Positions 28,401 through 49,500 are shown, numbered from the stretch's first letter. The stretch is DNA of 64,000 nucleotides from Porphyridium purpureum (GCA_008690995.1 VRMN01000008.1:1-64000); one strand, 5' to 3'. Notes: generated by a model from the letters alone, not told the origin. Numbers and translations are program-made.

Positions 28401-29882
28401 TTGCGCCTGTCTGGGTCTGTTGCGACAAGCAATATGGTTTTCTTTGATCCGAGCGGCCGCATCCGCAAGTATGACACAACATATGATATTGTATTGGAGC
28501 ACTTTTCACTGCGCCTGAGCATGTACGAGAAGCGCAAGGCCGCGATTCTGGCCGAGCTCGAAATGGAGCAGGCCAAGTTGGAGAACAAGGCGCGCTTCAT
28601 CCTCATGGTTGCCGAAGGTAAACTCAAGGTGTCCAAGCGGAGCAAGGCAGCCATCTTGGATGATTTGGTGAAGCTCAAGTTCAAGCCTTTTCCTCCACGA
28701 AGGGCTCCGGTCGCCGAGCAGACACCGGACGATGAGCAAGATGATGAAGAAGGCGACGGCAACGGCAATGTTGGGGCAGGTGCATACGATTACCTGCTTG
28801 GCATGCAACTCTGGTCGCTGACGCTTGAGAGAGTGAATGCTCTTATCCAGGAGCGTGATGCAAAGATTGCCGAGGCGCAGGCCATGCGCATGCTGTCCCC
28901 GCAAGATCTGTGGAATGCAGACTTGGATGCCTTGATGATAGCCCTAGAGCAGGATGAGCGAGAGTATGAGGAGTCCAAGAAGGCCTCTGAGGCTGCTCCT
29001 TCGAGAGGAAAATCGAAGAAGCCTGCTTCAGGGACGAGCAAGTCTTCGGGGACAGGAAAGGTCGATCTGGAGCGCGAACTGGCGACGCTGGAGCCGATTC
29101 CGGCTCCCTCTGCGCGCATGGCGGCTGTGCGCAAGTCTCGTGCAGTACCCAGCAAGATTGTGGGAGCCAAAATGACAGGCGTCTCTGGTACAGAATTGGA
29201 CATGGACAGCGCATTGGAGATGGGCATTGACGGTGTCCTGGCAGATGATGTGATGTCCATTGCCATTACAGAGAAGCATGCGAAGAAAGCTGCGCCGAAG
29301 AAAGCAGCGGGTGCCGTGTCTGAAGCCGCACCGTCCTCCGGTTTGTCTCTGTCCCAACGTCTAGTGCAACAGGCTCAGGAGAAGCATGTCGGCGTTGTGA
29401 ATCTGGTCGACGACGATGGGCTATTCTCCATGAGTTCGGTGGGCGCGGCGATTCCGATTCCCAAGGCAAAGAAAGGGCCAGGTGCTGCCAAGAAGACGGC
29501 GGCGCAGCCGAAACGGTCGCGCGCCGCTGCTGGCATGACCAAGAAGAAAGCGAATGGAGGGGCGGTCGCCGCGGCGGGGAGCAGCAGCGGCGCCGCGGTG
29601 CACGAGTCGCCATCAACCAAGACACCTGAAGCAAAGCGCACCAAGCTGAAGAAGCGCGTTGAGGTGTCCAGTGATGAAAGCGACGCGGATTTGGACGACG
29701 ACCAGCTGAGCAGCGACGAGGAAGCCAAAGTCTTGGAAGCCATTCAACGGCGCGGGGTGACGCCTGTGCAGCGTAGCAAACGCGAACGTCGCCCCACAAA
29801 GTATGCGCTTGCTCTGGATAGTGAGTCGGACGCAAGCAGCGTGGAGGGTGACGAGGACGAAGATGACTTTGTGCCAGAGTAA
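25443..29882 (+). CDS. TOP2: DNA topoisomerase II
   Basis: EHVLLRPDTYIGS, KIFDEILVNAAD, GGRNGYGAKL, TEGDSA, PLRGK, MTDQDHDGSHIKG, YYKGLGTS, AASARYIFT (catalytic Tyr). ATG at 25443. Confidence 0.98.
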   Translation: MEALHPAQAGNSNQNKRLGPGQNVEEMYKKVSQLEHVLLRPDTYIGSAERVAQTMWVWDEPAGKMVYREVHYVPGLYKIFDEILVNAADHKQRDASLDTIKVDIDTENNLISVFNNGSGIPVEMHKKEGVYVPEMIFGQLLTSSNYNDSEKKVVGGRNGYGAKLANIFSTKFVVETADSARGLKYRQVFRDNMQQKEPPTVKSMGAKKEDWTRLSFSPDLAKFGATHLDTDTFALFKKRVYDIAGANPGIKVWFNGERIPIRTFKDYVNLYMHEKPDVPLVHERCGERWEVVVTASDGQFNQVSFVNSIWTIKGGTHVTHVADQIVAKLSEHIAKKSKTVAPKPFQIKSHLSIFVNCLVENPAFDSQTKETLTSKPSSFGSKCVLSEELMKKVIKSGVVENILAFAKFKQEKELSKTDGGKKIKVLGVPKLDDANKAGSRESCKCTLILTEGDSAKALAISGLSVIGRDYYGVFPLRGKLLNVREATHKQIMDNAELSNLKKILGLQQNKTYDAESVKQLRYGHVLIMTDQDHDGSHIKGLLINFLEHFWPSLLEVPGFLQEFITPIVKCTRGQDQKIFFTMPEYKTWFEAEMGSGARSRWNIKYYKGLGTSTSSEAKQYFGDLDTHLLTFKHAGSNCNQMIDLAFSKQRVADRKVWLAESEPNTFLDYARDELTYSNFINKELVLFSLADNERSIPSVVDGLKPSQRKVLFACFKRKLKTEIKVAQLAGYVSEHAAYHHGEASLMSTIVGLAQNFVGANNINLLVPSGQFGTRLQGGKDAASARYIFTRLAKVTRALFPEKDDQILEYLDEDGMRIEPKWYCPIIPLALVNGADGIGTGWSTSVPCYNPRDLVKIIRALLAVSSSTDETQLQRTIHGIDLVPWYRGFKGSVHAVENSTSFDVHGRVYRVDADTLRVVELPIRSWTSSYKEWLESNVVGAPSVGDNTQAKSAFVRDIRDLSTEDQVDFTVTVTPGSTADTEDLFKKLRLSGSVATSNMVFFDPSGRIRKYDTTYDIVLEHFSLRLSMYEKRKAAILAELEMEQAKLENKARFILMVAEGKLKVSKRSKAAILDDLVKLKFKPFPPRRAPVAEQTPDDEQDDEEGDGNGNVGAGAYDYLLGMQLWSLTLERVNALIQERDAKIAEAQAMRMLSPQDLWNADLDALMIALEQDEREYEESKKASEAAPSRGKSKKPASGTSKSSGTGKVDLERELATLEPIPAPSARMAAVRKSRAVPSKIVGAKMTGVSGTELDMDSALEMGIDGVLADDVMSIAITEKHAKKAAPKKAAGAVSEAAPSSGLSLSQRLVQQAQEKHVGVVNLVDDDGLFSMSSVGAAIPIPKAKKGPGAAKKTAAQPKRSRAAAGMTKKKANGGAVAAAGSSSGAAVHESPSTKTPEAKRTKLKKRVEVSSDESDADLDDDQLSSDEEAKVLEAIQRRGVTPVQRSKRERRPTKYALALDSESDASSVEGDEDEDDFVPE

Positions 29883-30875
29883 AGCAAGATTGCTCGCGCG
29901 CCTATTTCTCCACTTTGTTCAGCGGGGAGTGTACAGATACGGCGCCGTGCCAGCTCGACAAGCCGTTGAATACGAAGCCGTTCAGCCAATTTTCGCATCT
30001 TGTTTCCGCCTTCCAAAACAGCAATGCGTTTCAGCGCGATCGACGCGCGTTCCTCCTTGCAGCAGCGTGCTACGCCCGCAAAAGCACACCGCCTGGTGCT
30101 GCCAGCAACGAGCTGCCGGAGGGTCATTCACGTGGTCATCGTGTCGCGCGAGATGCCGCACGGACGAACGGTACGCCGAGCGTTGTTGACCCGCGTGATG
30201 TCGTTGTGAGTATGCAAGTCGCACTGCATTTCCCCCGCCGACATTCTCGCGCTCACCACCGCCGGTACCGATGCCAGCACCACCGCTGCCCGCCGCGCGT
30301 GACGGCATGATCCTCACTGAATGAATCATCGCGCTCCAGTTCTCACATTCCCACTCACACCACCACCACCATCCATCCATCCACCACGCCTTATCTCAGG
30401 GTCAAGGGTCATTCGCTCGGTTGATTCGCGCGAGGAATCTGTGTTTATATGGCCGGACGCTTACACAATACACAGCTCACTCCACGCTCCCCACCACAAC
30501 CATCCGACCGGCAGAAATTACTCACAAACATGGGCGCAGAAAAGGTCGCCGCACGAAAAACTTGAAAGCCGCGTACAGCGTTTTTTTTTTTGGTTTGGCG
30601 TCTTTCTTTCTTTTCGAGCGACTGCTCCGGCTCCACATCTGTCGGCCCCTCCCCGGGAGCAACAATCTTTTCTTTTTCTGTTCGGTCCTTTAATTTTTCC
30701 TGGATGTGTTTTTAACACTCAAAATCTGATTGATGGGTCATCGTCGTCTTTTGTAATAGAACCGAATCATACGAAGAACAAGAACGACTAGGAGAAGTAC
30801 TGGTGGTGGTGGTTGACTAGAACTGAGCCGGTAGTTGTAGTTAAGAGTAAAGAACAGCACATTGATAATAAGGCA

Positions 30876-31650
30876 TGGATTAAAAGTGTTCCGGTCCGAG
30901 AGACGCCCTGGGTGTACACCCGGAGGTACGGCGTCTCGGAATTGTTTGAGGTACAGGGGCTTTTTCGCCCACGTGGTTTTTTACCCTGTACCTCTGGTTT
31001 GTGCATTGTTGTCTTTCGCCCCGAGGAGCCGGAGTCGCGTGTCCGAGGGAAGCAGGAGCCGCTTGGCGGCCGGCCAGCACCCATTGAGCCGCTTGCTGAC
31101 GTGGCTGGCTGTGGCTTCGTTCTGTGGAACGAACGGAGGAAAGCCCAGCCTTTGGGAGAAATAATTTCTCCCTTCCGCGTCAAGGACAGCAAGGACGGCG
31201 GGGTATATAATGGGCGCGGGCCTGTGCGGTTCCCCGGATTTTCTTTAGAGCGGAAGAAGGAGAGGCAAGGGAGTAGGACACAGAGAATAAAAGAGGAGTT
31301 TGTTCTTTGGTGTCGGGTGCCTGGGCGTGGTCGTCGGAAGGCGTGGGGCCTTTTGCTGAGCCTGTGTAGCAGAGCCAGCAGCACATCGTGTCTGGGGGGT
31401 TTCGGTGCTCTTAGAGCACTGAAGGCAGACGGCGGCTTTGTCCGTTACGACACCCTGCCCCTGTCGAGACCGGTGCTGTCTGTGCCGACGCGAAAGGCAA
31501 TAGTAGAGGCCCTATACGTTGGATTTTCCACGCCCCGGGTATTCGTCGTCTGTGTTGTGTGCGTCGTGTTGCTGGGGTTCGGTCATCTGAGAAGGGTTGT
31601 GTCATCCGGGCTCGTGCGCTTGTCATCATCAAGCGTGCGAGAATTTAAAG
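30876..31650 (+). repeat. 5' LTR of outer element (775 bp)
   Basis: Matches 41521-42327 except for about 4 substitutions, a 1-bp indel and a 31-bp indel (counted by eye). TATATAA at ~31204. Ends are uncertain by 1-3 nt. Confidence 0.9.
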
Positions 31651-31662
31651 TGGTATCATCGC
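31651..31662 (+). other. Primer binding site (tRNA-iMet type) of outer element
   Basis: TGGTATCATCGC immediately after the LTR; the same 12-mer follows the inner element's 5' LTR. Confidence 0.85.
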
Positions 31663-31672
31663 ATCGGCGAAG

Positions 31673-32431
31673 ATGGATTCTGAGGGAATGAACGTGCAGG
31701 GCCTGCAGGGCGGCGCGTCGTGGATTGAAGCTTTCAACCAGCTTCATGCTCGTATCGGAGGACAAGAAATGATGATTGTGCAGCTGCAGGAGGGAAACCG
31801 CCTCTTGCAGGAGATGCTGCAGAGTGTGATGCATCAGGCATCTGTGCCAGCTGGTCCCGGCGAAACGGAAAGGACCGTTGCATCGCTGATTGGACGTAGC
31901 TTGAGGAAATACGACGGACAGCGCGACAAACTCGTTGTGAACGAGTGGTTGTCGAGGATGAAGCAAGACTTGGACATGTGCATGCCAGCTGGGGCGCTGG
32001 AGTCGCAGAAGGTGATCGTAGCGTCGCGCTTCTTTGAGAAGGATGCCGCGCTGTTGTGGGCAGCTCGCCCTGAAGAACAGAGGATGGCATTGGCCGAGTC
32101 CGGTTGGAATGCGTTCGCGAACTTCGTGCGGACGGCATTTGAGCCGCCGCAGGCATACCTGACTGCTCGAACGAACTTGTATCAGCTGAAGCAGGGCAAG
32201 ATGACTGTTGCTGAGTTTGAGCAGCGCCTGAGGATGGTGGCTCTGTCCGTGGATAATGTGACAGATGCCGAGCTCAACACCATCTTCACTCTCGGCCTGA
32301 AGGAGAAGCTTCGCCTTGAGGTGGCGCGTCAGGACACGAAGACGCTGGAAGAGTCGCTGAGGGCGGCGTTGGCTGCGGAGCAGGTTGGTAGGTTTGGAGG
32401 AGACATGAGGGAGGCTTTTCATGGCGCCTCT
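31673..32431 (+). pseudogene. gag: Outer element gag, N-terminal part (interrupted by Gypsy insertion)
   Basis: Retrotransposon capsid motifs (KYDGQRD, WNAFANFVRTAF, LYQLKQG, FTLGLK). The frame resumes after the TSD at 37915. Confidence 0.88.
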
Positions 32432-32734
32432 TGTTATCCGTTCGACCCCAGTCACCTAGAACGGTTCGGTTACTCCGAAACCGGTAAGCCGTTAAACCGG
32501 TAGACCGTTTAACCGTTTCTAGAAGCTTCTAGAGGTTCCAGAACCTTCTAGACGCGCGCAGAAATGCCAATCATTTGCATTGTCATTTCTCTTGGCGCCT
32601 TGCTGTCCCTAGCGGAAGTAAGGGTATAAAAAGGCGACGCGCCTGCCCGGACTAGCCGGTCAGGTCTTGCTCGGAGACAGAAGAGGTAAGAAGAGGAAGA
32701 AGAGAGAGAGAATAAAGGCACAGCATTGGTAACA
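32432..32734 (+). repeat. 5' LTR of inner Gypsy (303 bp)
   Basis: TGTTA...TAACA inverted termini, CCAAT at ~32567, TATAAA at 32625, AATAAA at 32711. Confidence 0.95.
32516..32553. promoter_or_regulatory. Heat-shock-element-like nGAAn inverted arrays in the Gypsy LTR (copy at 37691-37728)
   Basis: TTCtaGAAgcTTCtaGAg and TTCcaGAAccTTCtaGAc, about 70-110 bp upstream of the TATA box. Confidence 0.7.
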
Positions 32735-32736
32735 TT

Positions 32737-32748
32737 TGGTATCATCGC
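32737..32748 (+). other. Primer binding site (tRNA-iMet type) of inner element
   Basis: TGGTATCATCGC, 2 nt after the LTR end. Confidence 0.88.
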
Positions 32749-33301
32749 TGGTTACCTGGGGTTGCTCTAAGGTTCTCTTAGCGCTTCTCTGGGGTTGCCT
32801 GGGTGGGAGAGTCTGCGGGTAAGGGGGTTCGAGTAAGTCGATCCGGAGGGTGCGACGGGTGGAAGCGGGTCTCAGTCTTGGCTGTACGATAGGCCTAGGC
32901 CTTGACGGCGGACTCGCTCTCTGCCTTAGCACGTATTAGTAGGCAAGAGCCGTAACGGTCAGCCTTCACTAGGATTCATCCTAGTGTCGCACGACCACCT
33001 TTGCGAAGGTAGGCGCCGAACACCTCCATACAAGATCGCATCTATAATCCCCGCCCCAGTGCAAAGGCCCGGGCCGCTCCCCATCCAGCGCAACAGAGGA
33101 GGATTGCTGTGTGCTTTGTTGTGCGTGCATGAGAAGATTGCTGTGCGTGTGTGTGCGTGAGAGGACCGCTTCGTGTGTCGGTTTGTGTTCGTGAGGGCGA
33201 CCGAGCCCGTTCGTGGTGCGCGCAGCTGTTGGAGAAAGTGAGCATCGGAGGCTTGCTGTTTGTGTCGTTGTCGTCGTTGAGCGTGCTTTAGTCCAGAAAG
33301 C

Positions 33302-35917
33302 ATGGAGATTGATTCGGAGACGCTGGGACCACGTGGCCCGAAGGAGGCCCGTCTGATGAGGTTCGACGGGAAGCGTGACCTTCTGGTTGTGAAGACGTGG
33401 TTGTTCCAGGCGAGAAAGAAGATCTTGGGCCGGCTGTCGGAGAGCATCCACCCGGACGATTTGGAGAAACGTCTGCTTGCGGAGAGGCGTGCTGTGGACC
33501 TGGCATCAGACTATTTCGAGGGAGAGGCGCTTCATTGGTGGGTTCTGAACTGCGAGCGCTACCCGCAGGAGATCCCCACGACGTGGAATGATTTTGCTGC
33601 CCTCGTGAGTGCTCGGTTCACGCCGCAGGATTCGATCAGGCGTGCAAGGGACAAGTTGACGCGTCTTTCGCAGAAAGGCCCGGCCCATGCGTATGTGGCG
33701 GCTTTTCAGGACGCGGCACTTGTGATTCCGGACTTGTCGGACGCAGAAATGATGGACCGCTTTGTGAGGGGTCTGAAGCCCGAGGTCCGCTTGGAAGTGT
33801 ACAAGCGAGGAGTGAGCACGTTCGCGGAGGCTGCGCAGGTGGCGGTGGTCGTGGACGACGCCATTCATGCGACCCGCGGCGTGCGTGATTCAAGTGTGAG
33901 GACGCCATTTTTCGGTCGTGCAGCGCAGGAAGGACCTGTCCCGATGGAGCTGGGACATGTGCAGGGTCAGAGGCGTGTTCGTACCGAGCTCAAATGCTGG
34001 AATTGTGGAAGGCCGGGACACATCGCGAGGAAGTGTCCCGAGGCAAGGAAGACTATCCAGCAGCTGGAGGGAGACTCGCTGGAGTCAAAAAAACGAGGAG
34101 CTCGAGTAAAGAGGTTCCTCGGACAGTCAGAGGGAAAGGAGGCTCGCAGACGTTACGAGACCTCTAGGGGCGGCAATGAAGACCGCTGTGGTGGCCTTGG
34201 TAAGCCAAGGTCTGGCTGTCCGAAACCTTGTGGGCGAAACTCGAGCGCAAATCAGCCCGTGATCAAGGAACTTGGAGGGATGGGAGCTGCCATGCTTCTT
34301 CGAGTTCGAGGAAAAGTGCACAAGTCCGATGGAGAGGCCACGTTTTTGATTGACAGTGGCGCGACGGACAACTTCATGAGCGTGGACTTTGTGCTGAAAT
34401 CCGACGGCCTGAAGCATAAGGCGTCGTGGAAGAGAGATCATGTGACCCTAGCAGACGGGTCAGTATTGGAAACAGCCGGAGAAGTTTCCAATGTCAAGTT
34501 TGAACTGAGCGATGGGTACTCAGGGACCGCTACCTTTGCCATTTGCCGGATTGCGGGACAAGACGCAATCTTGGGCATGGAGTGGCTGAAGCGGGAGAAC
34601 CCAGTGATTGATTGGCAGTCTGGCATGTTGGCCTACGGAGAGAAGAAGGCCTGGAGCATGACGCAGATGCTGGTGCCACGGAAAGAGCTCCGTCGGCTGT
34701 TGAAGAGTCAGGAGGTAGAAGAGTGCTACCTCGGCGTGCTGAAAGGAAGGGAGGAGCCCTGTTCAGTGGAGCGCAAAGGAGATGACTCTGTGAGAAAGAT
34801 GCTCAAGGATTTCGAAAATCTGTTCGAGGAGCCACGTGGGCTGCCTGAGAGCCGAACAGTGGAGCATGTGATTAGGCTGAAAGATGAAAAGCCTGTGAGA
34901 GTGGGCAGGGTCTACCGACTGAGCCCTGCGGAGTTGAAAGTCCTCCGAGAGACTTTGGACGACTTGCTGGATAAAGGATTCATCCAGCCGAGTCAGAGCC
35001 CGTTTGGAGCACCCGTGCTGTTCGTGAAGAAGAAAGACGGCAGCATGAGGATGTGCGTCGATTATCGGGCGTTGAACGACGCAACTGTGAAGGACCGGTA
35101 TCCGTTGCCAAACATGGATGAGTTGCTGGATCGACTGGGCGCAGCTCATTGTTTTTCAAAGTTGGATTTGGCATCGGGATACCACCAGTTGCGTGTTCGG
35201 AGAGAGGACGTGCCGAAGACCGCGTTCCAGACCAGGTACGGACAGTTCGAGTTCCGTGTGATGCCGTTTGGTCTTTGCAACGCGCCGGCAACTTTTCAGA
35301 GGGCCATGAACGAGCTGTTTGCAGATCTGCTGGACAAGACCGTCATTGTCTACTTGGACGATATTTTGGTCTTTACCAAGGATAGGCAGTCGCATGCTGA
35401 GGTCCTGAAGGAAGTGTTGTCGCGCTTGCAAAAGGCGGGGTATCGGTTGAAGCGCAAGAAGTGCAGCTTCTTCGTTTCTGAAGTCGAATACCTGGGGAAC
35501 ATTGTCGGCAACGGTTGCGTGAAGATGGATCCACGGAAGGTGGAAGCTTTGAGAGATTGGCCAGTGCCAAAGACGGTGACGGAGTTGAGATCCTTTTTGG
35601 GAATGACAAACTGGTTTCGCAGGTTTGTCAAAGGATACTCTACCGTCGTGGCGCCGCTGACTTCGCTGTTGCAGAACGCAAAGTCGAAGAAGCAGCTGAT
35701 CGAACTGGGAGATGAAGGCAAGTCGGCCTTCGAGAAGATTGTGGGGATGTTGACGGAAGCGCCGGTGTTGGCCTTGCCAGACCCTGAAAAGCCATTTGAG
35801 GTGTACACGGACCGCTCCGAAGTCGCGGTGGGGGGGATGGCTGGCACAGGAAGGCAGACCGGTCGCGTTTACGTCAAGGAAGCTGCTGGACCGAGAGACC
35901 AGGTACAGCAGCTATGA
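33302..35917 (+). CDS. gag-pol: Gypsy Gag-PR-RT-(partial RNase H) polyprotein
   Basis: GPVPMELG, CWNCGRPGHIARKC (CCHC), FLIDSGAT, KKKDGSMRMCVDYRALN, MPFGLCNAPATFQ, YLDD. The reading frame is lost at the G-run near 35830. Confidence 0.93.
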   Translation: MEIDSETLGPRGPKEARLMRFDGKRDLLVVKTWLFQARKKILGRLSESIHPDDLEKRLLAERRAVDLASDYFEGEALHWWVLNCERYPQEIPTTWNDFAALVSARFTPQDSIRRARDKLTRLSQKGPAHAYVAAFQDAALVIPDLSDAEMMDRFVRGLKPEVRLEVYKRGVSTFAEAAQVAVVVDDAIHATRGVRDSSVRTPFFGRAAQEGPVPMELGHVQGQRRVRTELKCWNCGRPGHIARKCPEARKTIQQLEGDSLESKKRGARVKRFLGQSEGKEARRRYETSRGGNEDRCGGLGKPRSGCPKPCGRNSSANQPVIKELGGMGAAMLLRVRGKVHKSDGEATFLIDSGATDNFMSVDFVLKSDGLKHKASWKRDHVTLADGSVLETAGEVSNVKFELSDGYSGTATFAICRIAGQDAILGMEWLKRENPVIDWQSGMLAYGEKKAWSMTQMLVPRKELRRLLKSQEVEECYLGVLKGREEPCSVERKGDDSVRKMLKDFENLFEEPRGLPESRTVEHVIRLKDEKPVRVGRVYRLSPAELKVLRETLDDLLDKGFIQPSQSPFGAPVLFVKKKDGSMRMCVDYRALNDATVKDRYPLPNMDELLDRLGAAHCFSKLDLASGYHQLRVRREDVPKTAFQTRYGQFEFRVMPFGLCNAPATFQRAMNELFADLLDKTVIVYLDDILVFTKDRQSHAEVLKEVLSRLQKAGYRLKRKKCSFFVSEVEYLGNIVGNGCVKMDPRKVEALRDWPVPKTVTELRSFLGMTNWFRRFVKGYSTVVAPLTSLLQNAKSKKQLIELGDEGKSAFEKIVGMLTEAPVLALPDPEKPFEVYTDRSEVAVGGMAGTGRQTGRVYVKEAAGPRDQVQQL

Positions 35918-37487
35918 AGGTGAGCTCATGGCCGTCATTCACTGTCTGCGAGAGTTTCGACCTTATCTGTTCGGGGCAAAGTTTGTGCTTCATACGGATC
36001 ATGAGGCGTTGAAACATTTGATGACGCAGAAGGAGCTGAATGGCCGGCAAGCACGGTGGCTGGACTTTTTAGCCGAGTTTGATATCACAATCGACTATGT
36101 GAAGGGAAAGTCGAACGTGGTAGCCGATGCTTTGTCGAGGAAGCCAGAGTTACACGCGCTAGAGTACCAGGTTCGGTGTGATGAATTTGGTGCGGGTTTC
36201 CAGGCATTCGTGGGTTCGTACTCGAGTGACCCAGACTTTGGTCCTTTGATGGGGGATTTACCGACCCACCAAGGTTTTCGAACCGAAGCCGGGCTCTTGT
36301 ACTTGAGGAATCGCGTTTGCGTGCCGAGGAAGTTCAGAGAGCGTGTCATGCAGCTCCACCACGATATCCCGACAGCAGGGCACCGTGGAGCGGACACGAC
36401 TTATGCATCTTTGATAACTCGCTTCTACTGGCCAAAGATGAAGCGAGACGTGAGCCGTTTTGTGAAGACTTGTCACGCATGCCAAGTGACAAAGTCTGAG
36501 AATCGGTCGTTCGGAAAGCTGAAGCCCTTGTCGATCCCAGAAGGACCTTGGGTCGACATTTCGATGGACTTTGTGACAGAGCTGCCTCGGAGCGAAGGCA
36601 GCTGTGATGCAATCATGACTGTGGTGGATCGCTATTCGAAGATGGCGCTGTTTATCCCGACGCGCAAGGACTTGACAGCAAAGCGTTGTGCTGACTTGTT
36701 CGTGAAGCACGTCGTGAGCCGTTTCGGATACCCCAAGTCAATTGTATCGGACCGAGATCCGCTGTTTACGTCCACGTTTTGGCAGCAGTTGAGCAAGCGG
36801 GTGGGCATGAAGTTGGCTATGTCTACCGCCAACCACCCGCAGACTGATGGCCAAACTGAGCGAGTGAACCGCGTGATTCGGGAAATGCTCAAGTTGATGG
36901 CGACGAATAGTGGCTGGGTGCGAGACTTGCCGTTGTACGAGTTTGCGTACAACTCTGCACCAAGCAGTGCCACTGGATTCGCGCCGTTCAAAGTGGTATA
37001 TGGAAGGGATCCTTGGTTTCCACCGAGCGAAGGGTGGAGGCCTGCGCGCGACGGACAGACGAAGGACATGGCGGAGCACTGGTTTCGCCTGTGCAAAGTC
37101 CATGAAGAAGTCCGCGACAATTTGATCGAAGCCCAAGGGAGAATGCAGAAGTTCTTCGATCGAAGCAAGGATGCCCGGGAGTTTCAAGTTGGTGATCAAG
37201 TGTTGGTCACGGCGCCGCAACTGCGGCCGAACAAGAGTGATTTGGCGGCACCAAAGTTTCTTGGTCCGGTGCCTGTCATTGAGAAGGTAAGCTCGCATGC
37301 TTACCGAGTGGTTTTGCCCGAGGGTGTGGCTTGTCATGATGTTTTTCCGATCCAACATCTGAAGCCATACTATGGACGCGAAGACTACATGGCGGGGGAA
37401 AATGATGAAGAAGTACCCGACGAAATGCCGGCGTCCGATTCTGAGCCAGACTTGTTGAAAATTATCGAAGAGTCTGACTCTGAATGA
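35839..37487 (+). CDS. pol: Gypsy RNase H remainder plus integrase (frameshifted continuation of pol)
   Basis: LAQEGRPVAFTSRKL, TDHEAL, NVVADALSR, HHCC (HHD..GH..CHAC), ISMDFV, SIVSDRD, HPQTDGQTERVNR, GPY/F-like PKFLGP, acidic tail, no chromodomain seen. Confidence 0.92.
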
Positions 37488-37606
37488 CTTGGGTACTGTG
37501 AGAAGTTTGCTAGGCAGAGGTTTTCTCCCGGAGCGCGGGTTCCTCGAGCCAAGAATGCAACTTAGTTTGAAGTCTCGCCGAGACGTCGAGCCAAGAGGGG
37601 GGGAGA

Positions 37607-37909
37607 TGTTATCCGTTCGACCCCAGTCACCTAGAACGGTTCGGTTACTCCGAAACCGGTAAGCCGTTAAACCGGTAGACCGTTTAACCGTTTCTAGAAG
37701 CTTCTAGAGGTTCCAGAACCTTCTAGACGCGCGCAGAAATGCCAATCATTTGCATTGTCATTTCTCTTGGCGCCTTGCTGTCCCTAGCGGAAGTAAGGGT
37801 ATAAAAAGGCGACGCGCCTGCCCGGACTAGCCGGTCAGGTCTTGCTCGGAGACAGAAGAGGTAAGAAGAGGAAGAAGAGAGAGAGAATAAAGGCACAGCA
37901 TTGGTAACA
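37607..37909 (+). repeat. 3' LTR of inner Gypsy (303 bp)
   Basis: Identical by eye to 32432-32734 and preceded by the PPT. Confidence 0.95.
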
Positions 37910-37914
37910 CCTCT

Positions 37915-38112
37915 AGTCCAAACTACCGGAACAGCTCGTCGTATGTCGGGACGGCGCCAATGGATTTGGGCGTCGTGGAGAAACGCCAGCCGGAGAAGCG
38001 CAAGCGTGCGGACATGGGCAAAGTCAGATGCTACCATTGCGGGCAGCGCGGCCACATCAAACCCAATTGCCCAAAGAGGAATGGGCACTTGGCGGGAGGC
38101 CCGGAAAACTAA
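37915..38112 (+). pseudogene. gag: Outer element gag, C-terminal part (PMDLG + CCHC knuckle)
   Basis: My translation: SPNYRNSSSYVGTAPMDLGVVEKRQPEKRKRADMGKVRCYHCGQRGHIKPNCPKRNGHLAGGPEN*. It is in frame with 31673-32431 once the inner element and one TSD copy are removed. Confidence 0.9.
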
Positions 38113-41100
38113 AACCTCGAGGGAGAAGTTGGGAGGTGCACTCGAGGGGAACGGAACCTCCCGGGATGGGCTTTGTAGGTGAGGTCTGGCGCGCTGATGC
38201 GGCGTCAAGGTTGCTCTACAAGCGTGGAACTTTAGATGGCGAGTCTGTCCAATTTCTGGTGGACAGCGGAGCATCGCACAATTTTCTTGGATCTCGCTTT
38301 GTCGGCAGATTTGAAGGGCGCGAGAACGGAATGGTCAAGCTTGCGGGTGGGCAAAGTGTCTTAGTGCATGGCCCGGTGTTGCAGCATGTTGATCTTGGGT
38401 TCTGGAAAGGGCCGGTCAAGTTTTATGTCGGACCTCTGCAAATGGATGCAATTCTCGGGTGGGACTGGCTGAGTCGCGTGAACCCGAGGATTGATTGGCA
38501 GAGGGGTTCGATGGACTTGGGACTTGAAAATGTGGAAGATTGTGCGATGGTGAATGTCGTGGACGCTCTTTCCGAGTCAAGCGGAAATCAAGCGTACGAT
38601 GGAGAAGAGGAGAGTGCCAGTGAAGAGGTCGAAGGAAAGATGGCCGGGATGGAACATGCGTTGACTCACATGCCGATGCGGAATGATTGTGAGACGTGTG
38701 TTGTGGCCAAGATCAAGAGCCGACCAGCAAGAAGGCTGGAGAAGGACTTGTCCACTTTGTCGTTCAATGACGAAGTTGGGATCGACCTGGTGGAGCCCGG
38801 ACGTAACGTGGAAGCCATCGATGGGGCGAAGTACATACTGACGCACATCGATAGAGCGACGAGGTGGGCCACACTGGCAGGATTGAGAGCCAAAACGCAT
38901 ACGGCGGTTGCTGAAGCTTGGACAAGCGTGCAAGCCGGGCGAGGATGGCCAAAGGTACTGAGGACAGATGATGGAAACGAGTTCAGGGGAAATGTGAGCA
39001 ATTTGGTACGGGAGAATCTCGTGAAGCATGAGATTGGCGTCCCACATAGACCAAATAGCCACGCTGAACAGGAACGTTTCCATCATACTTTGAATCAGGG
39101 GGTACGAGCAAATCTCCTGCAGTCTGGGCTGGGAAAGCGGTGGTTTTTGCATGCCGCTCAGCATTTCGTCTTCATGTTCAATCGGCTGCACCCAGACAAG
39201 AGGTCTGGGAAGTCTCCGTATGAAATGAGGTACGGTGAGAGATGGAAGCGGGGGAAGGTAGCAGTACCATTTGGATGCAAGGTGGTGTTCAAGAATGATC
39301 AACCTGAGAACAAGTATGCACCCAGAGGAAAGATTGGAGTCCTTGTTGGAGTTGCGGAGCATCCGCTGGCAATCTGGGTCCTTCCTCAGGAGGAGTGGAC
39401 GAGTGCGGCACCGAGGCTGACTCGCACTCAGGACTTCAAGGCGTTCCCTGAAGTGTTTCCAATGCGGACTTTGGAAACAAGGGATGACGAGGAGGTCTCG
39501 GCACGTGAGGGTGAAATCGACTTTCACTCTAGGCAGGAAGAACCGGATAGTCAAGAGACTATGGTGTTGCCTACGAATACGGCCGAGGCGCGTGAATCCG
39601 GGAACTTGGAGGAGGATGTTCCCCTACCTGTTGGAAGAAGGGGGAAACGAAAACCCAGGGTATCTTGGAGCCGGGAAGAGGATCAGGCCATCATGGATGG
39701 CTTACGGCTCTTTGGCTGGGGGAAGTGGGAAAGAACTCTGCAAGAATACAAGGCAGTGTTCCGCGATTCAAGAAACGGAAAGGATGTGCGAGCCCGGGCT
39801 CATAATATGGGCCTCTCGGAGGAAAATTGGAGGCAACGCGCAGGAGTTGCTCCAGAAACACCGCAATTGAACTTGACAACTTTGTTGCAGACGAGCCAAG
39901 CTCTGGCTTCTTCGGCTGGAAGAGAAGCCATGCAAAAAGAAGTGGACTTGATGATTCGATTCAAGGTATGGGATGAGCAACCTATTTCAAGGGAAGAAGC
40001 TCTCAAGGTCCCAGGCGCACGATTTGTGCGGACACACTTTATATTCGGATTGAAGTTCGCTGAGCTTCCGGAGGAGTTTCGCAAGGTCAAGTGTCGGCTT
40101 GTTGCTGGTGGAAATAGGATTTGGGATGCCTCAGGGAAGGTCACTCAGGATGTGTTTGACTATGAGGTGCCCGCGGGCCTGTCTGCAATCAGAATGTTGA
40201 TAGCTTTGGCCGCGATCCTGGGATTGAAAATCGTGTCGTTCGATGTGACGTCGGCGTACTTACACGCTGACTTGTCAGGACCACCGACGTTTGCCATGTT
40301 GCCCCCTCATGTTCCAGGAGGAGGTGATGGACTTCTCGTTCGCTTGAGAAGGGCGCTTTATGGCTTGCCAAGAAGCGGGTCTGACTTTTCCATCGATGCC
40401 CGCAGAAAACTTCAGAAGTTCGGGTGGGATTTGATTCACGGCGAGAAGAATGTATACGTGAAAAAGATGGCGGGAAGTGCATCTGTTGCACTCTTGGCCT
40501 TGTATGTCGATGATGGCCTGCTCGCGTGTGCCGAGAAGGATCGGGGTGAGATATTTCGAGAGTTGAGGTCAGAGTTCCTCATTGAGAAGGAGCCAGAAGT
40601 CCTCTCGGAAGGTACCCCGTTGAGGTTCCTAGGTCTCACGATCTCGGAGTCGGCGGCACGGCTTTCGTTGGATCATGATCACTACCAAGCTTTGGTGGTG
40701 AAGGAATTTGAAGAAGAGCTTGGGCAGGTGCTGCGAGCGGTGAAATCACCGGGTGAGAAGATGAATGCTGACGCTGTATTGGATGTTCAAGTCGAACATG
40801 GGCATCTGAAAATACGCGAGCATGTTGGGCGGCTGCTGTGGTTGGCCAGGACGGTCAGACCGGATATCTCCTATGCAGTTGGAGTGGTGGCTCGGTATGT
40901 GGATAGCTGGAACGTCGCAGCTGAGAGACTCCTGGTTCGCGTCATGCAATACTTGAAGGTGCCTCGTGAGCCACTTGAGTATTTGCGGATGACGTCATTG
41001 AAGATCAGCGACGTAAGCGTCTTGGGTTATGCTGATGCCGACTTTGCTGGATGCCCGGAAACGCGCAAGTCAACGTCTGGGAGAGTGACGTACTTGGTCG

Positions 41101-41528
41101 CGGGTGGAAACAAGTATCTGGTCGATTGGAGCTCCAGAAGGCAACGCTTTGTGAGCTCTTCGACCTCTGAGTCTGAGATGGCCGCTCTGGAAGAAGCGGT
41201 GCAGTTGTCTCTGTTTCCGGCATTGTCGTTTCTTCGAAGCGTGCAAGAGGGGGATTATGCGTTGACCCTGCTCTGTGATAGTCAAGTTGTTCTCCGTGCG
41301 GTCGAGATGGGCTACTCGCCAAAGTTGCATCACATGGCAGTGACCAGAGCCACGGACTTGGCGTGGATACACCAAGTTTGCGAGAAGCAAAAGCTGGTGA
41401 GATTGGAATATGTGAGGACGGGGGAAAACGTGTCCGACTTGATGACAAAACCTTTGTTTCCGGAAGGTCATATCAGGTGTTGGACTATGTTACGCGTCCC
41501 TCAGATCGGAAGGAGGAGCATGGATTAA
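38100..41528 (+). CDS. pol: Outer element Pol: aspartic protease - integrase - Myb - Copia-type RT - RNase H
   Basis: FLVDSGASHNF; HALTH..CETC; D(LV)..RTDDGNEF..QERFH; SWSREEDQAIMDGLRLFGWGKW; KCRLVAGG, FDVTSAYLHA, LRRALYGL, YVDD; GYADADFAG..RKSTSG, SESE, CDSQ, NVSDLMTKPL. The ORF is intact (track 38028-41528). Confidence 0.93.
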   Translation, partial: PGKLKPRGRSWEVHSRGTEPPGMGFVGEVWRADAASRLLYKRGTLDGESVQFLVDSGASHNFLGSRFVGRFEGRENGMVKLAGGQSVLVHGPVLQHVDLGFWKGPVKFYVGPLQMDAILGWDWLSRVNPRIDWQRGSMDLGLENVEDCAMVNVVDALSESSGNQAYDGEEESASEEVEGKMAGMEHALTHMPMRNDCETCVVAKIKSRPARRLEKDLSTLSFNDEVGIDLVEPGRNVEAIDGAKYILTHIDRATRWATLAGLRAKTHTAVAEAWTSVQAGRGWPKVLRTDDGNEFRGNVSNLVRENLVKHEIGVPHRPNSHAEQERFHHTLNQGVRANLLQSGLGKRWFLHAAQHFVFMFNRLHPDKRSGKSPYEMRYGERWKRGKVAVPFGCKVVFKNDQPENKYAPRGKIGVLVGVAEHPLAIWVLPQEEWTSAAPRLTRTQDFKAFPEVFPMRTLETRDDEEVSAREGEIDFHSRQEEPDSQETMVLPTNTAEARESGNLEEDVPLPVGRRGKRKPRVSWSREEDQAIMDGLRLFGWGKWERTLQEYKAVFRDSRNGKDVRARAHNMGLSEENWRQRAGVAPETPQLNLTTLLQTSQALASSAGREAMQKEVDLMIRFKVWDEQPISREEALKVPGARFVRTHFIFGLKFAELPEEFRKVKCRLVAGGNRIWDASGKVTQDVFDYEVPAGLSAIRMLIALAAILGLKIVSFDVTSAYLHADLSGPPTFAMLPPHVPGGGDGLLVRLRRALYGLPRSGSDFSIDARRKLQKFGWDLIHGEKNVYVKKMAGSASVALLALYVDDGLLACAEKDRGEIFRELRSEFLIEKEPEVLSEGTPLRFLGLTISESAARLSLDHDHYQALVVKEFEEELGQVLRAVKSPGEKMNADAVLDVQVEHGHLKIREHVGRLLWLARTVRPDISYAVGVVARYVDSWNVAAERLLVRVMQYLKVPREPLEYLRMTSLKISDVSVLGYADADFAGCPETRKSTSGRVTYLVAGGNKYLVDWSSRRQRFVSSSTSESEMAALEEAVQLSLFPALSFLRSVQEGDYALTLLCDSQVVLRAVEMGYSPKLHHMAVTRATDLAWIHQVCEKQKLVRLEYVRTGENVSDLMTKPLFPEGHIRCWTMLRVPQIGRRSMD
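38103..38162 (+). other. Candidate -1 ribosomal frameshift signal (G_GAA_AAC + H-type pseudoknot)
   Basis: Slippery heptamer at 38103-38109 just before the gag TAA. Stem 1 is CCTCGAG 38115-21 / CTCGAGG 38141-47; stem 2 is GGGAGGT 38131-37 / ACCTCCC 38156-62. Pol is in the -1 frame. Confidence 0.75.
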
Positions 41529-42327
41529 AAGTGTTCCGGTCCGAGAGACGCCCTGGGTGTACACCCGGAGGTACGGCGTCTCGGAATTGTTTGAGGTACA
41601 GGGGCTTTTTCGCCCGCGTGGTTTTTTACCCTGTACCTCTGGTTTTGTGCATTGTTGTCTTTCGCCCCGAGGAGCCGGAGTCGCGTGTCCGAGGGAAGCA
41701 GGAGCCGCTTGGCGGCCGGCCAGCACCCATTGAGCCGCTTGCTGACGTGGCTGGCTGTGGCTTCGTTCTGTGGAACGAACGGAGGAAAGCCCAGCCTTTG
41801 GGAGAAATAATTTCTCCCTTCCGCGTCAAGGACAGCAAGGACGGCGGGGTATATAATGGGCGCGGGCCTGTGCGGTTCCCCGGATTTTCTTTAGAGCGGA
41901 AGAAGGAGAGGCAAGGGAGTAGGACACAGAGAATAAAAGAGGAGTTTGTTCTTTGGTGTCGGGTGCCTGGGCGTGGTCGTCGGAAGGCGTGGGGCCTTTT
42001 GCTGAGCCTGTGTAGCAGAGCCAGCAGCACATCGTGTCTGGGGGGTTTCGGTGCTCTTGGAGCACTGAAGGCAGACGGCGGCTTTGTCCGTTACGACACC
42101 CTGCCCCTGTCGAGACCGGTGCTGTCTGTGCCGACGCGAAAGGCAATAGTAGAGGCCCTATACGTTGGATTTTCCACGCCCCGGGTATTCGTCGTCTGTG
42201 TCGTGTGCGTCGTGTGGTTGTGTTCTCTGTGCTGTGTGCGTCGTGTTGCTGGGGTTCGGTCATCTGAGAAGGGTTGTGTCATCCGGGTTCGTGCGCTTGT
42301 CATCATCAAGCGTGCGAGAATTTAAAG
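41521..42327 (+). repeat. 3' LTR of outer element (807 bp)
   Basis: Direct repeat of 30876-31650, 32 bp longer. The pol stop codon lies inside it. Confidence 0.9.
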
Positions 42328-42445
42328 TTTATGCTTGACCGTCACGATGACCGAAGGATACCGCAAACAACAAAACGCGTGAGGCTGTAGGCGCTCGCTC
42401 GTCTACTGGTCACACTCAGTTTAATCCATCTCACCAAGACACCTA

Positions 42446-43405
42446 TTATGGACAGTCTCCCCAGTGGCGAGTTCGGTCGGCAAAATACATGTTGCGATGA
42501 TCAAACTTGATTTTGAACTCGTGAGTGTGCTTCATCCAGTCGTCCGAGCAGCACATGCAGAAATTTTCAAGCACGACGTTGCGAAGCTCGGACACTTTGC
42601 ACAGCCAGCGGCCACAAATCTGGATTTTGTCGGCGCCATGCCACTCGATGTGTCGGTCATGATTTTCGTCATTTTCGTTTTGGCCTAAGTTCCTGCCGGA
42701 CACGAACAACTCGGTCAAACCAGGCACGCGTGCGAGCTGGCGCAGCAGGGCGTGCGGCAAGTTGAAAGGCTCCATACCGGAACCAAGATGGCAATTGAGC
42801 CACAGGCGGCGAATGGGTTTGGATGCACCGCTCAGCCCATTGCGGACCCAAACCAGAGGGATCAAGTAGTCCTCGATGTTATCGTCGTCACCGTTGCGTA
42901 GGTAGAAGCCGTCGACATGGAGCAGCGCGTAGCGCAGCGCGTGCATGGGCGGGCACTGCAACCTATCTGCGCCTGCACGGCTGGCGGACGCGAGCTCCAT
43001 GGGTACGCGCTGCGCAAGCACCGGGTCATGCTGCACGACTTGCGTACCATACGCGCCGATGAGGGTGGCCAGCCAGCTTGCCTGCGGCTCCATGCGCGCG
43101 AACACAAAATTGATGACGGTCTGCACCAATCGCGAGTTTTTGAAGGCGAGCAGCACGTTCAGCTGCCGCTCCTGCCGATACCGCGGGTTTGACTTGTGCA
43201 GGTCCACGTAAAGCGCGACGCGCACGCGGCGCTCGAAGACACGCATCATTCGACGCGAGGTGCGAGCCAGCTGCATCATGTCGACGAGGTCTGACGTCAG
43301 CGCGGCGCGCTGCCCGTGCCCCGCAAACGGCTCGACGTACATTGACGCGCAGTGCTCGAACACCTTTTCCACGAGCTCATCTGGCAGCGCGTCGATCAAC
43401 GCCAT
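42446..43405 (-). CDS. F-box-like protein
   Basis: N-terminal IDALPDELVEKVFEHC ... LARTSRRM resembles an F-box; weak LRR-like segments follow. ATG at 43405. Confidence 0.5.
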   Translation of the reverse strand: MALIDALPDELVEKVFEHCASMYVEPFAGHGQRAALTSDLVDMMQLARTSRRMMRVFERRVRVALYVDLHKSNPRYRQERQLNVLLAFKNSRLVQTVINFVFARMEPQASWLATLIGAYGTQVVQHDPVLAQRVPMELASASRAGADRLQCPPMHALRYALLHVDGFYLRNGDDDNIEDYLIPLVWVRNGLSGASKPIRRLWLNCHLGSGMEPFNLPHALLRQLARVPGLTELFVSGRNLGQNENDENHDRHIEWHGADKIQICGRWLCKVSELRNVVLENFCMCCSDDWMKHTHEFKIKFDHRNMYFADRTRHWGDCP

Positions 43406-47912: not shown

Positions 47913-49331
47913 TTAGTCTTGAGTGCCAGGCGGAGGCTGAGTGAGCGTTTCTGGGAATGAGTTTTCGGCCCAGTGTGGCGGCGTGAGAGGCGGAAGGTAG
48001 TCGTGTCGATGCCGCGAGCAGGACTGCATCATCCGCTCGGCCTTGTTGACGTCGCCGTGCGCAAGCGCAATGTACGTGTACCGGCATTCGTCGCATGTCG
48101 CCCCAATCTGCTGGGCGCGCGCCTCCTTGCCGCGCTTGGGCACGTTCACCTTGCGTACACCGACAAGGCGCCGCACGCCGTCTGCAGCTGCTGTACGTGC
48201 ATTAGGGCTTCGAGAGGCTCGGTAGCCCGCTTTACGCGGGCCCGTGAAGATGGGCTCCGCTCCAGGTGCCGCAGTGGATAGGCCGGCCTCTCCCGTCAGC
48301 GCTGAGGGAGCGCCGTCGAATCCTTCGACGTCTTGTGTCTCTCCCCGCGAGCTCGGCTTGGGCGGTGCCGCATTCATCCGAATACGCTCCCGCAGTGTGG
48401 GAGTCTTGGGTCTCTGCAAGACCGCCTGCTTATCTGCAGACCCATGTGTTCCGGTCCCGCTATCTCTACTTGGCAAGGGTCCAGCTGGCGCCGCCACTGC
48501 CGGCGCACCTGTCACATGCTGCTCTTCGGGATGCAGGGACGGTGGCGGTTCTTCTGTTGAGCAGTCGGAATTTTGTGTATACAAAAGCTCATCTCGATTG
48601 ACTGCTGGCCGCCTGTCTGCCGGTGTCAGTCTCAACGGCGATTCTGCCGGAGCGTCCACATGCATGACCGTCTCATCCGCGGCGATCGTTGTGCAGCCCG
48701 CCACGCGGTTCCGCATCGCATCGTCTCCAGGACATCCGGTATTCAAGCGAGCAATCCCGTCAAACTCCAACTTTTGCCGAACCGGATGACCATCCAATTC
48801 ATCCATCGGTACCCGCACGGCACCTCTTGCAAACGACATTGGAGCAGCCGCGCGGTCCGGATGAGCTGCAGGTCGAACGGATGATTTGGGCTCTTCTACC
48901 AAGTTTTCGTTTCGTGCTTCCTTGCTCGCTCGCAGTGAATTCCCTGTTGGAGTCCGAGCGGACGCCACCAAACTGGCCTCTGGCACCGCACATAAGGCCT
49001 CTGTCTCGTTCGCGTTCGTCATATTCCCTGCCTGGTGGACGCGATCGTTCATTCCACACTTTGCGAGCCATTTACCATCTACCTGACGCCATTTTTCCTG
49101 AACATCCAGCGCGCGCCCTGTTCTAGTCTCTGCCTTCTGGCCCTGCCCATGCACAAACTGCTCCAACAGAACGAGCTGCTGAGCGCACAATCTCTCCAGC
49201 GCGTCCATGCGCGCATGCACCTTTGCGAATTCCTCTGTCAGGCTCATGCCCTGCAAAGCTTGTTCCATCATCTTTCGTGCGCAAAATCCGACCAGTGCAT
49301 CTCCATCACGCGGCGCTTTCGCTGCCATCAT
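47913..49331 (-). CDS. COM1: CtIP/Sae2/COM1 DNA-end resection factor
   Basis: C-terminal Sae2/CtIP signature: GATCDECRYTY (CxxC), CSRHRH (RHR), PPLTPPHW..FP. N-terminal coiled-coil-like segment. ATG at 49331. Confidence 0.82.
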   Translation of the reverse strand: MMAAKAPRDGDALVGFCARKMMEQALQGMSLTEEFAKVHARMDALERLCAQQLVLLEQFVHGQGQKAETRTGRALDVQEKWRQVDGKWLAKCGMNDRVHQAGNMTNANETEALCAVPEASLVASARTPTGNSLRASKEARNENLVEEPKSSVRPAAHPDRAAAPMSFARGAVRVPMDELDGHPVRQKLEFDGIARLNTGCPGDDAMRNRVAGCTTIAADETVMHVDAPAESPLRLTPADRRPAVNRDELLYTQNSDCSTEEPPPSLHPEEQHVTGAPAVAAPAGPLPSRDSGTGTHGSADKQAVLQRPKTPTLRERIRMNAAPPKPSSRGETQDVEGFDGAPSALTGEAGLSTAAPGAEPIFTGPRKAGYRASRSPNARTAAADGVRRLVGVRKVNVPKRGKEARAQQIGATCDECRYTYIALAHGDVNKAERMMQSCSRHRHDYLPPLTPPHWAENSFPETLTQPPPGTQD

Positions 49332-49500
49332 TCCTGCGTCCTCGCGCACTCTCTTTCCCTCTCTCCCCGTCTCTCTTTCTCTAGCTTCGACTTGGCCTCT
49401 CCCCGTGAATGCGCCACAGGTTCTCGAGTTAAGACACAACTGGGAGCAGGAGGAGAGGAACAAGACCGGGGCGGAGCACAAGGTTGATGAACGGGGTAAG

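Follow-up and report, generated by a model that had tools for sequence, protein, structure and literature searches.

Ty3/Gypsy and Ty1/Copia retrotransposons are regarded as two distinct lineages, each with a Gag, protease (PR) and Pol that travel together, and an element is assigned to a superfamily by its reverse transcriptase (RT) and domain order. Copia proteases carry an LLS motif where others carry ILG; in the table available from PMC2774666, LLS was found in 62 of the 69 Ty1/Copia rows, the motif was lost in 7, and ILG was found in none. Copia-type elements of the GalEa kind are known from red algae, including CoPorcru1/2 from Porphyridium cruentum ESTs (PMC3587641, accessible part). 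According to the accessible part of PMC5445492, GalEa elements have TGT...CA ends, a 5-bp target-site duplication and a single ORF. The accessible parts of PMC2806351, PMC2836005, and PMC5890265 contain nothing decisive on a hybrid build. In a literature search with most subscription journals outside its reach, no paper on a Copia element with a Gypsy gag-protease was found. A 2008 paper reportedly describes, by its title, the copia-like element PyRE10G with a gypsy-like integrase from Porphyra yezoensis, which may bear on novelty.

The DNA analyzed here, herein referred to as the window, is a 64,000-nt stretch of Porphyridium purpureum (GCA_008690995.1 VRMN01000008.1:1-64000). Comparison of the window with itself revealed two long direct repeats, the LTR pairs of two elements, one inside the other (Table 1). 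The outer LTR element occupies positions 30873-42328, and its gag is split by a younger Gypsy insertion. In the first-pass annotation, a chimeric retrotransposon was placed at 31673-41528; this span describes the coding part, and the full element is longer by its two LTRs. Two LTRs, a primer-binding site (PBS), and a polypurine tract, as in an autonomous LTR retrotransposon, are present in the outer element. Aligned over 811 columns, its two LTRs show 3 substitutions, and 32 of the columns contain gaps. The 12-base PBS has two exact copies in the window, each directly after a 5' LTR. The primer is likely initiator tRNA-Met, judging by this sequence; the start TGGTATCA is typical for such a primer. 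No tRNA gene was found within the 64-kb window.

Neither a target-site duplication nor TG...CA ends were found at the repeat limits of this single outer copy (30873-30880 and 42320-42335), despite LTRs only 3 substitutions apart. Close to the outer ends, TTGA occurs as a 4-bp repeat, but it falls beyond the LTR limits and was therefore discounted as a target-site duplication. The missing ends and duplication may reflect unusual end processing by this group of integrases or recombination between copies. Within a GT-rich repeated stretch, about 31 bases are absent from the 5' LTR (31549-31570) and present in the 3' LTR (42195-42240); the same bases also occur in the upstream reading of the gene models of other copies. 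The whole nest (29882-42446) is flanked by convergent genes. The gene for topoisomerase II ends at 29882, and a gene for a 319-aa protein without a Pfam match ends 117 bases from the outer 3' LTR. Elsewhere in the window, an ORF of 2379 aa at 49207-56346 has no Pfam match at E 0.001, and TTAGGG is not in excess (2 found vs. 11 expected).

The nested element is an ordinary Ty3/Gypsy element with the order gag-PR-RT-RNase H (RH)-integrase (IN), encoded in the frames 33302-35917 and 35754-37487. Its LTRs are identical at 303/303 bases; despite this identity, the frame changes inside RNase H (35754-35917), by either mutation or sequencing error. Initial inspection had described an insertion bounded by target-site duplications that splits a gag whose halves rejoin in frame, and a PR in one ORF with IN. 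All of this was confirmed: CCTCT is found on both sides of the inner element, the outer gag resumes in frame behind the right copy and runs to its own stop codon, and the single stop-free frame 37917-41528 spans PR, IN, RT, and RNase H. The six outer/inner pairs of Gag and PR motifs, as well as the six Copia motifs reported downstream (KCRLVA, DVTSAYL, ALYGL, YADADFA, RKSTSG, and DLMTKPL), were likewise all present at their described places. Because the outer gag is interrupted by the later Gypsy element, it would be able to move only if a different copy supplied Gag. By BLAST, the outer and inner elements share 31% identity in Gag (E 1e-14) and 38% identity in PR (E 1e-12), and no similarity was detected between their RT or RNase H. 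An identity of only 31-38% excludes the nested element as the donor of the outer Gag and PR; it is a distant cousin of that donor.

Table 1. Features of the outer element and of the element nested in it (window coordinates).
Feature	Position	Strand	Evidence or remark
Outer 5' LTR	30873..31651	+	Limits from identity to the 3' LTR; last base at each end may be chance
Outer primer-binding site, TGGTATCATCGC	31651..31662	+	Same as that of the inner element
Outer gag, 5' part (Ty3/Gypsy-type capsid)	31673..32431	+	Retrotrans_gag 5.5e-11, Ty3_capsid 5.4e-8
Target-site duplication CCTCT, left copy	32427..32431	+	Flanks the inner element
Nested ordinary Ty3/Gypsy element	32432..37909	+	LTRs 32432-32734 and 37607-37909; PBS 32737-32748
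Target-site duplication CCTCT, right copy	37910..37914	+	Flanks the inner element
Outer gag, 3' part	37915..38112	+	APMDLG motif; CCHC knuckle about 38026-38076; stop TAA 38110-38112
Candidate -1 slippery heptamer, G GAA AAC	38103..38109	+	Directly before the gag stop; putative function
Aspartic protease, ILG (non-Copia) type	38226..38477	+	Pfam, protease tree, AU test, BLAST
Acidic linker holding the Gypsy-to-Copia switch	38510..38654	+	Equal length in uninterrupted copies
Integrase	38655..39362	+	Zinc finger of compact type, H-x3-H-x6-C-x2-C, at 38655-38699; catalytic core; Copia-type SH3 match (weak)
Myb-like domain between integrase and RT	39657..39806	+	E 6e-5, just under the curated cut-off
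Copia-type reverse transcriptase (RVT_2)	40020..40712	+	2.2e-16; no RVT_1
Copia-type RNase H and pol end	41028..41528	+	Stop a few bases into the 3' LTR
Polypurine tract, GGAAGGAGGAG	41508..41518	+	Sequence
Outer 3' LTR	41518..42328	+	Identity to the 5' LTR

No Copia Gag or protease family was found in the outer Gag and PR by Pfam at E up to 0.1. The same scan recovered Retrotran_gag_2, DUF4219, and Pol_BBD in two control elements of the same host, and it thus discriminates between the two types; the outer Gag lacks the Copia-type domains Retrotran_gag_2 and DUF4219. In profile comparisons, three Gags of the hybrid type matched four Gypsy Gags at 99.7% (99.3% without the nested element), with the bias that two of these four had been recovered using a hybrid Gag-protease as the query. 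The corresponding values were 4% against 16 canonical Copia Gags and 0.2% against seven Gags from a Copia-type group in which the integrase zinc finger is compact (see below); the Gag profile of this group itself matched Copia Gag at 93.8%. A structure model of the outer Gag (pLDDT 85), made from an alignment that included Gypsy rows, has the two-lobed fold of retroelement capsids; the single-sequence model had pLDDT 57, and the fold search with it returned nothing. For the former model, the top Foldseek ranks were dArc1, Ty3, and PEG10, and VIA-align placed PEG10 first (Z 13.1) and a Copia capsid second (Z 11.2). Given this second rank, the modeled fold confirms a capsid but does not discriminate between Gypsy and Copia. 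Solved structures searched with the single Gag and PR sequences yielded no match below E 0.069, and the best ESM Atlas scores (0.84-0.89) were used as leads only.

The outer gag and pol are in different frames, pol being -1 relative to gag. Judging from the nucleotide sequence, a -1 frameshift at the candidate site G_GAA_AAC likely connects them. The slippery site of PEG10 is similar to this heptamer. No unusual RNA fold was detected downstream of the candidate site (z -0.55). A minor alternative is splicing of gag-pol. The public gene models deal with the frame change in this way, using an intron or a split, but they are annotation, not evidence of splicing.

The outer PR has weak Pfam matches to gag-asp_proteas, Asp_protease_2, and RVP_2 (3e-5 to 4e-3). 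Its motif is ILG, and neither the LLS motif nor Pol_BBD of Ty1/Copia was found; the combination of a Ty3-type Gag with an ILG protease is that of Ty3/Gypsy elements. When a profile of this PR was compared with solved structures, DDI1 proteases were the best match. The remaining part of pol follows Ty1/Copia in its domain order, PR-IN-RT-RH, and in the types of its RT and RNase H; an RVT_1 RT, a Gypsy RNase H, and an integrase after RNase H, which characterize Ty3/Gypsy, are all absent. Domain-wise BLAST of each outer domain against 10 chosen subjects revealed that similarity flips from Gypsy to Copia between PR and IN. Thus, the best E-values for Gag and PR are 1e-14 and 1e-12 with Gypsy vs. 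6.6 and 0.1 with Copia, and those for RT and RNase H are 3e-42 and 4e-38 with Copia-type subjects vs. 0.58 and 0.03 with Gypsy.

The nearest solved structures to the Myb-like domain are the telobox domains of TRF1 (E 4.6e-4). This domain recurs in the relatives P0131, P0133, P0141, and P0277, and it is lacking in the P0002 family. A telobox-like Myb domain persists in pol across several families that are 30-40% identical. It is a candidate targeting module of the integrase. No description of a Myb domain on retrotransposon integrases was found in a limited literature search.

In total, 198 proteins matched the outer RT-RH region; coverage reached 400 positions or more in 169 of them, and removal of near-identical copies left 136. 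Two groups can be distinguished among these 136 rows, namely canonical Copia and a set characterized by a compact finger in the integrase. Reference rows for the trees were database proteins called canonical Copia or Gypsy by Pfam and motifs, and the set held no GalEa, CoDi, or Ty1 sequences. The tree of RT-RH for 44 hand-picked rows kept the split between the two groups (100/100). The outer element was found there in a mostly Porphyridium clade of 13 rows (99/97), nested with relatives that have LLS proteases (96/90 and 97/98). In the integrase tree (50 rows), six hybrids form one clade (96/82) inside a 96/91 clade with LLS-protease relatives, apart from both canonical Copia (100/99) and Gypsy (100/99). 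The first-pass description of the whole downstream part as Copia therefore stands for the domain order, RT, and RNase H and has to be amended for the integrase, which belongs to the compact-finger group and lies outside the canonical Copia clade. A quick tree of IN+RT+RH with a Gypsy outgroup gave the same nesting of the hybrids (96 and 96), with the base of the Copia side unresolved.

The protease tree contains 43 rows, seven near-duplicate or unclear rows having been omitted. Four hybrids and eight Gypsy proteases were found on one side of this tree (98/87), which is based on 108 columns, with long branches that meet and only eight Gypsy proteases; among the Gypsy protease and Gag rows, two had been found by searching with a hybrid Gag-protease. 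Ten LLS proteases of the compact-finger group fall on the Copia side. The four hybrid proteases did not come out as monophyletic, nor was their monophyly rejected (p=0.2); either one capture or two may have occurred. As proposed at first inspection, Gag and PR fall with Gypsy and IN-RT-RH with a Copia-type group in the Pfam, profile, and separate-tree analyses taken together.

The compact-finger proteins, 25 among 149 RT matches, include 2 with ILG, 11 with LLS, and 12 with no readable protease. This large Copia-type group (P0004-P0041, P0137-P0247) has its own protease clade (100/100), and some of its members have CCCH fingers in Gag. No name for the group was found in the accessible parts of the literature examined. 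In one of its proteins, P0149, an AAA_28 (NTPase) domain is fused after RNase H (residues 1213-1375).

The best protein matches of the outer element are from P. purpureum. Its nearest cluster has 17 members. Among the 15 members listed, 12, located on 8 scaffolds, hold Gag, PR, and RT in one uninterrupted gene model with 91-99% pol identity. The gag gene is present in 14 of these 15 members, and 13 of the 14 read exactly through the insertion point; the remaining member of the 15 is identical to the pol of the outer copy and has no gag start. A second family, P0002, at about 65% identity and with 16 members, has the same protease type without the Myb domain. The families P0133 and P0141, with four members each and 35-38% RT-RH identity, have a Ty3-type Gag, an ILG protease, a compact zinc finger, Myb, and a Copia RT in one ORF. 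Thus, at least four families with the ILG protease type were found in the P. purpureum genome, namely that of the outer element and three more distant ones. P0124 and P0136 are inside the hybrid clade but have no Gag-protease region. Among the relatives scanned, hybrids with a visible Gag-protease were found only in P. purpureum. Metagenome contigs yielded three loci out of 150 candidates (25-26% identity), and the two long ones have a non-hybrid protease; no relatives were found in viral contigs (0/55 and 0/39). The earlier view that the build does not result from nesting is therefore sustained by the uninterrupted copies together with the further families, which point to a lineage.

The outer element belongs to a multi-copy Porphyridium family that combines a Gypsy-type Gag and protease with pol enzymes (IN, RT, and RNase H) from a Copia-type group; we consider it probable that this build arose through an ancient replacement of gag-protease by recombination. 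The mixed build is most likely explained by an ancestor that replaced its own gag-protease with a Gypsy module. The first-pass reading as an inter-superfamily recombinant is supported, with the qualification that the formal tests reject only the RT-predicted placement of the outer protease, with the compact-finger proteases (p=0.016). Three AU tests did not reject an origin without recombination, in which this lineage would have branched off first within Copia and kept an ancestral Gag and ILG protease that changed later in other Copia: hybrid IN may group with Gypsy IN (p=0.21), Gypsy proteases may be monophyletic without the hybrids (p=0.125), and the hybrids may be basal on IN+RT+RH (p=0.133). 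The wide distribution of ILG among non-Copia proteases (PMC2774666, accessible part), the DDI1 match of the protease profile, and the unresolved base of the Copia side are also consistent with such retention. However, the best IN, RT-RH, and IN+RT+RH trees nest the hybrids, with starred support, among LLS elements, and the nearest relatives outside the hybrids have a Copia-type Gag and protease. Recombination is therefore argued for most strongly by the inversion of rates: Gag and protease, which evolve fast, retain 31-38% identity with Gypsy, whereas the slower RT retains none. We regard retention as unlikely.

It is quite improbable that the outer element is a member of the described red-algal Copia clade (GalEa, PyRE10G, CoPorcru1/2), with its mixed build already published. 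Such membership is suggested by the GalEa-like elements from Porphyridium cruentum ESTs and, by its title, the Porphyra paper mentioned above. However, the mixed domain in that paper is the integrase and not Gag-protease, the outer integrase lacks the long HX4HX30CX2C finger, and none of the 150 best RT matches fits a provisional GalEa RT pattern. In addition, GalEa proteases are LLS in 5/5 rows of the table available from PMC2774666, and the ends, duplication, and single ORF of GalEa were not found in the outer copy. The outer copy is nested and has no target-site duplication, but a join produced by the nesting, by recent local recombination with the inner Gypsy element, or by misassembly is scarcely credible, being refuted at the family level by the 12 uninterrupted gene models on 8 scaffolds, by P0133 and P0141 with the whole build in one ORF, and by the low Gag and protease identity of the inner element.

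For the hybrid produced by gag-protease replacement, the following cycle can be proposed. RNA from the 5' LTR would be translated into Gag, and a -1 frameshift at G_GAA_AAC would yield Gag-Pol. The Gypsy/Ty3-type capsid would package the RNA, the Gypsy-type protease would free the Copia-type IN and RT-RH, and RT would be primed by initiator tRNA-Met. The Myb domain on the integrase tail may tether the integrase to DNA and guide integration, as do the chromodomains of chromoviruses. The swap itself could have occurred by template switching between RNAs packaged together and sharing a primer, or by deletion inside a nested Gypsy-in-Copia locus of the kind seen here, with the crossover placed in the linker. 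The primer site common to both elements, together with an insertion into gag on the same strand, illustrates the kind of substrate that could give rise to such a swap.

In three P. purpureum families (P0277, P0280, and P0282/P0138), a canonical Copia Gag, protease, and integrase were found with the RT-RNase H of the hybrid clade. Grouping the RT-RH of P0277, P0280, and P0138 with canonical Copia was not rejected by the AU test (p=0.27), and these reverse mosaics therefore rest on the best trees and Pfam. With about even odds, in our judgment, Porphyridium harbors an old and still-amplifying radiation that has swapped modules across Gypsy and Copia more than once. In four families, a Gypsy gag-protease would have been set before a compact-finger Copia pol, in three others a canonical Copia gag-protease-integrase before RT-RNase H of the same kind, and a telobox-like Myb would be a new module for integrase targeting. 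A thriving natural hybrid would mean that Copia enzymes are compatible with packaging by a Gypsy capsid and processing by a Gypsy protease, and the rules of compatibility between particle and enzymes become testable. Classification by RT only hides such hybrids.

Among known systems, the outer element resembles Ty1/Copia (Pseudoviridae) in its PR-IN-RT-RH order, RVT_2 RT, Copia RNase H, and a weak SH3_retrovirus match after the integrase core. It differs from them in its Ty3-type Gag and ILG protease (0/69 Copia in the table available from PMC2774666), compact integrase zinc finger, Myb domain, and likely -1 frameshift, as well as in the TG...CA ends, which were not found. GalEa and PyRE10G are similar in being Copia-order elements of red algae, Porphyridium included. 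By their descriptions, GalEa elements are set apart by an LLS protease, a long HHCC zinc finger, and a single ORF; none of these was found in the outer copy, and P0133 and P0141 do have a single ORF, together with DTGA. The CoDi-A Copia elements also carry a captured chromatin- or DNA-binding module at the integrase tail, but this module is a chromodomain in CoDi-A and Myb in the outer element, and CoDi-A proteases are LLS or have lost the motif. The likeness to Ty3/Gypsy (Metaviridae), including chromovirus-like elements and the PEG10/Arc capsids, lies in the Retrotrans_gag/Ty3_capsid Gag, PMxLG, CCHC knuckle, and ILG protease; in contrast, the outer RT, RNase H, and integrase are not of Gypsy type, and the integrase is ahead of RT. 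Gmr1-like Ty3/Gypsy elements share both the ILG protease and the integrase before RT. Two Gmr1-like rows (P0049 and P0053) were placed with Gypsy in the integrase tree. In Gmr1 elements the domain order is changed but RT, RNase H, and integrase are all of Gypsy type, whereas those of the outer element are of Copia type.
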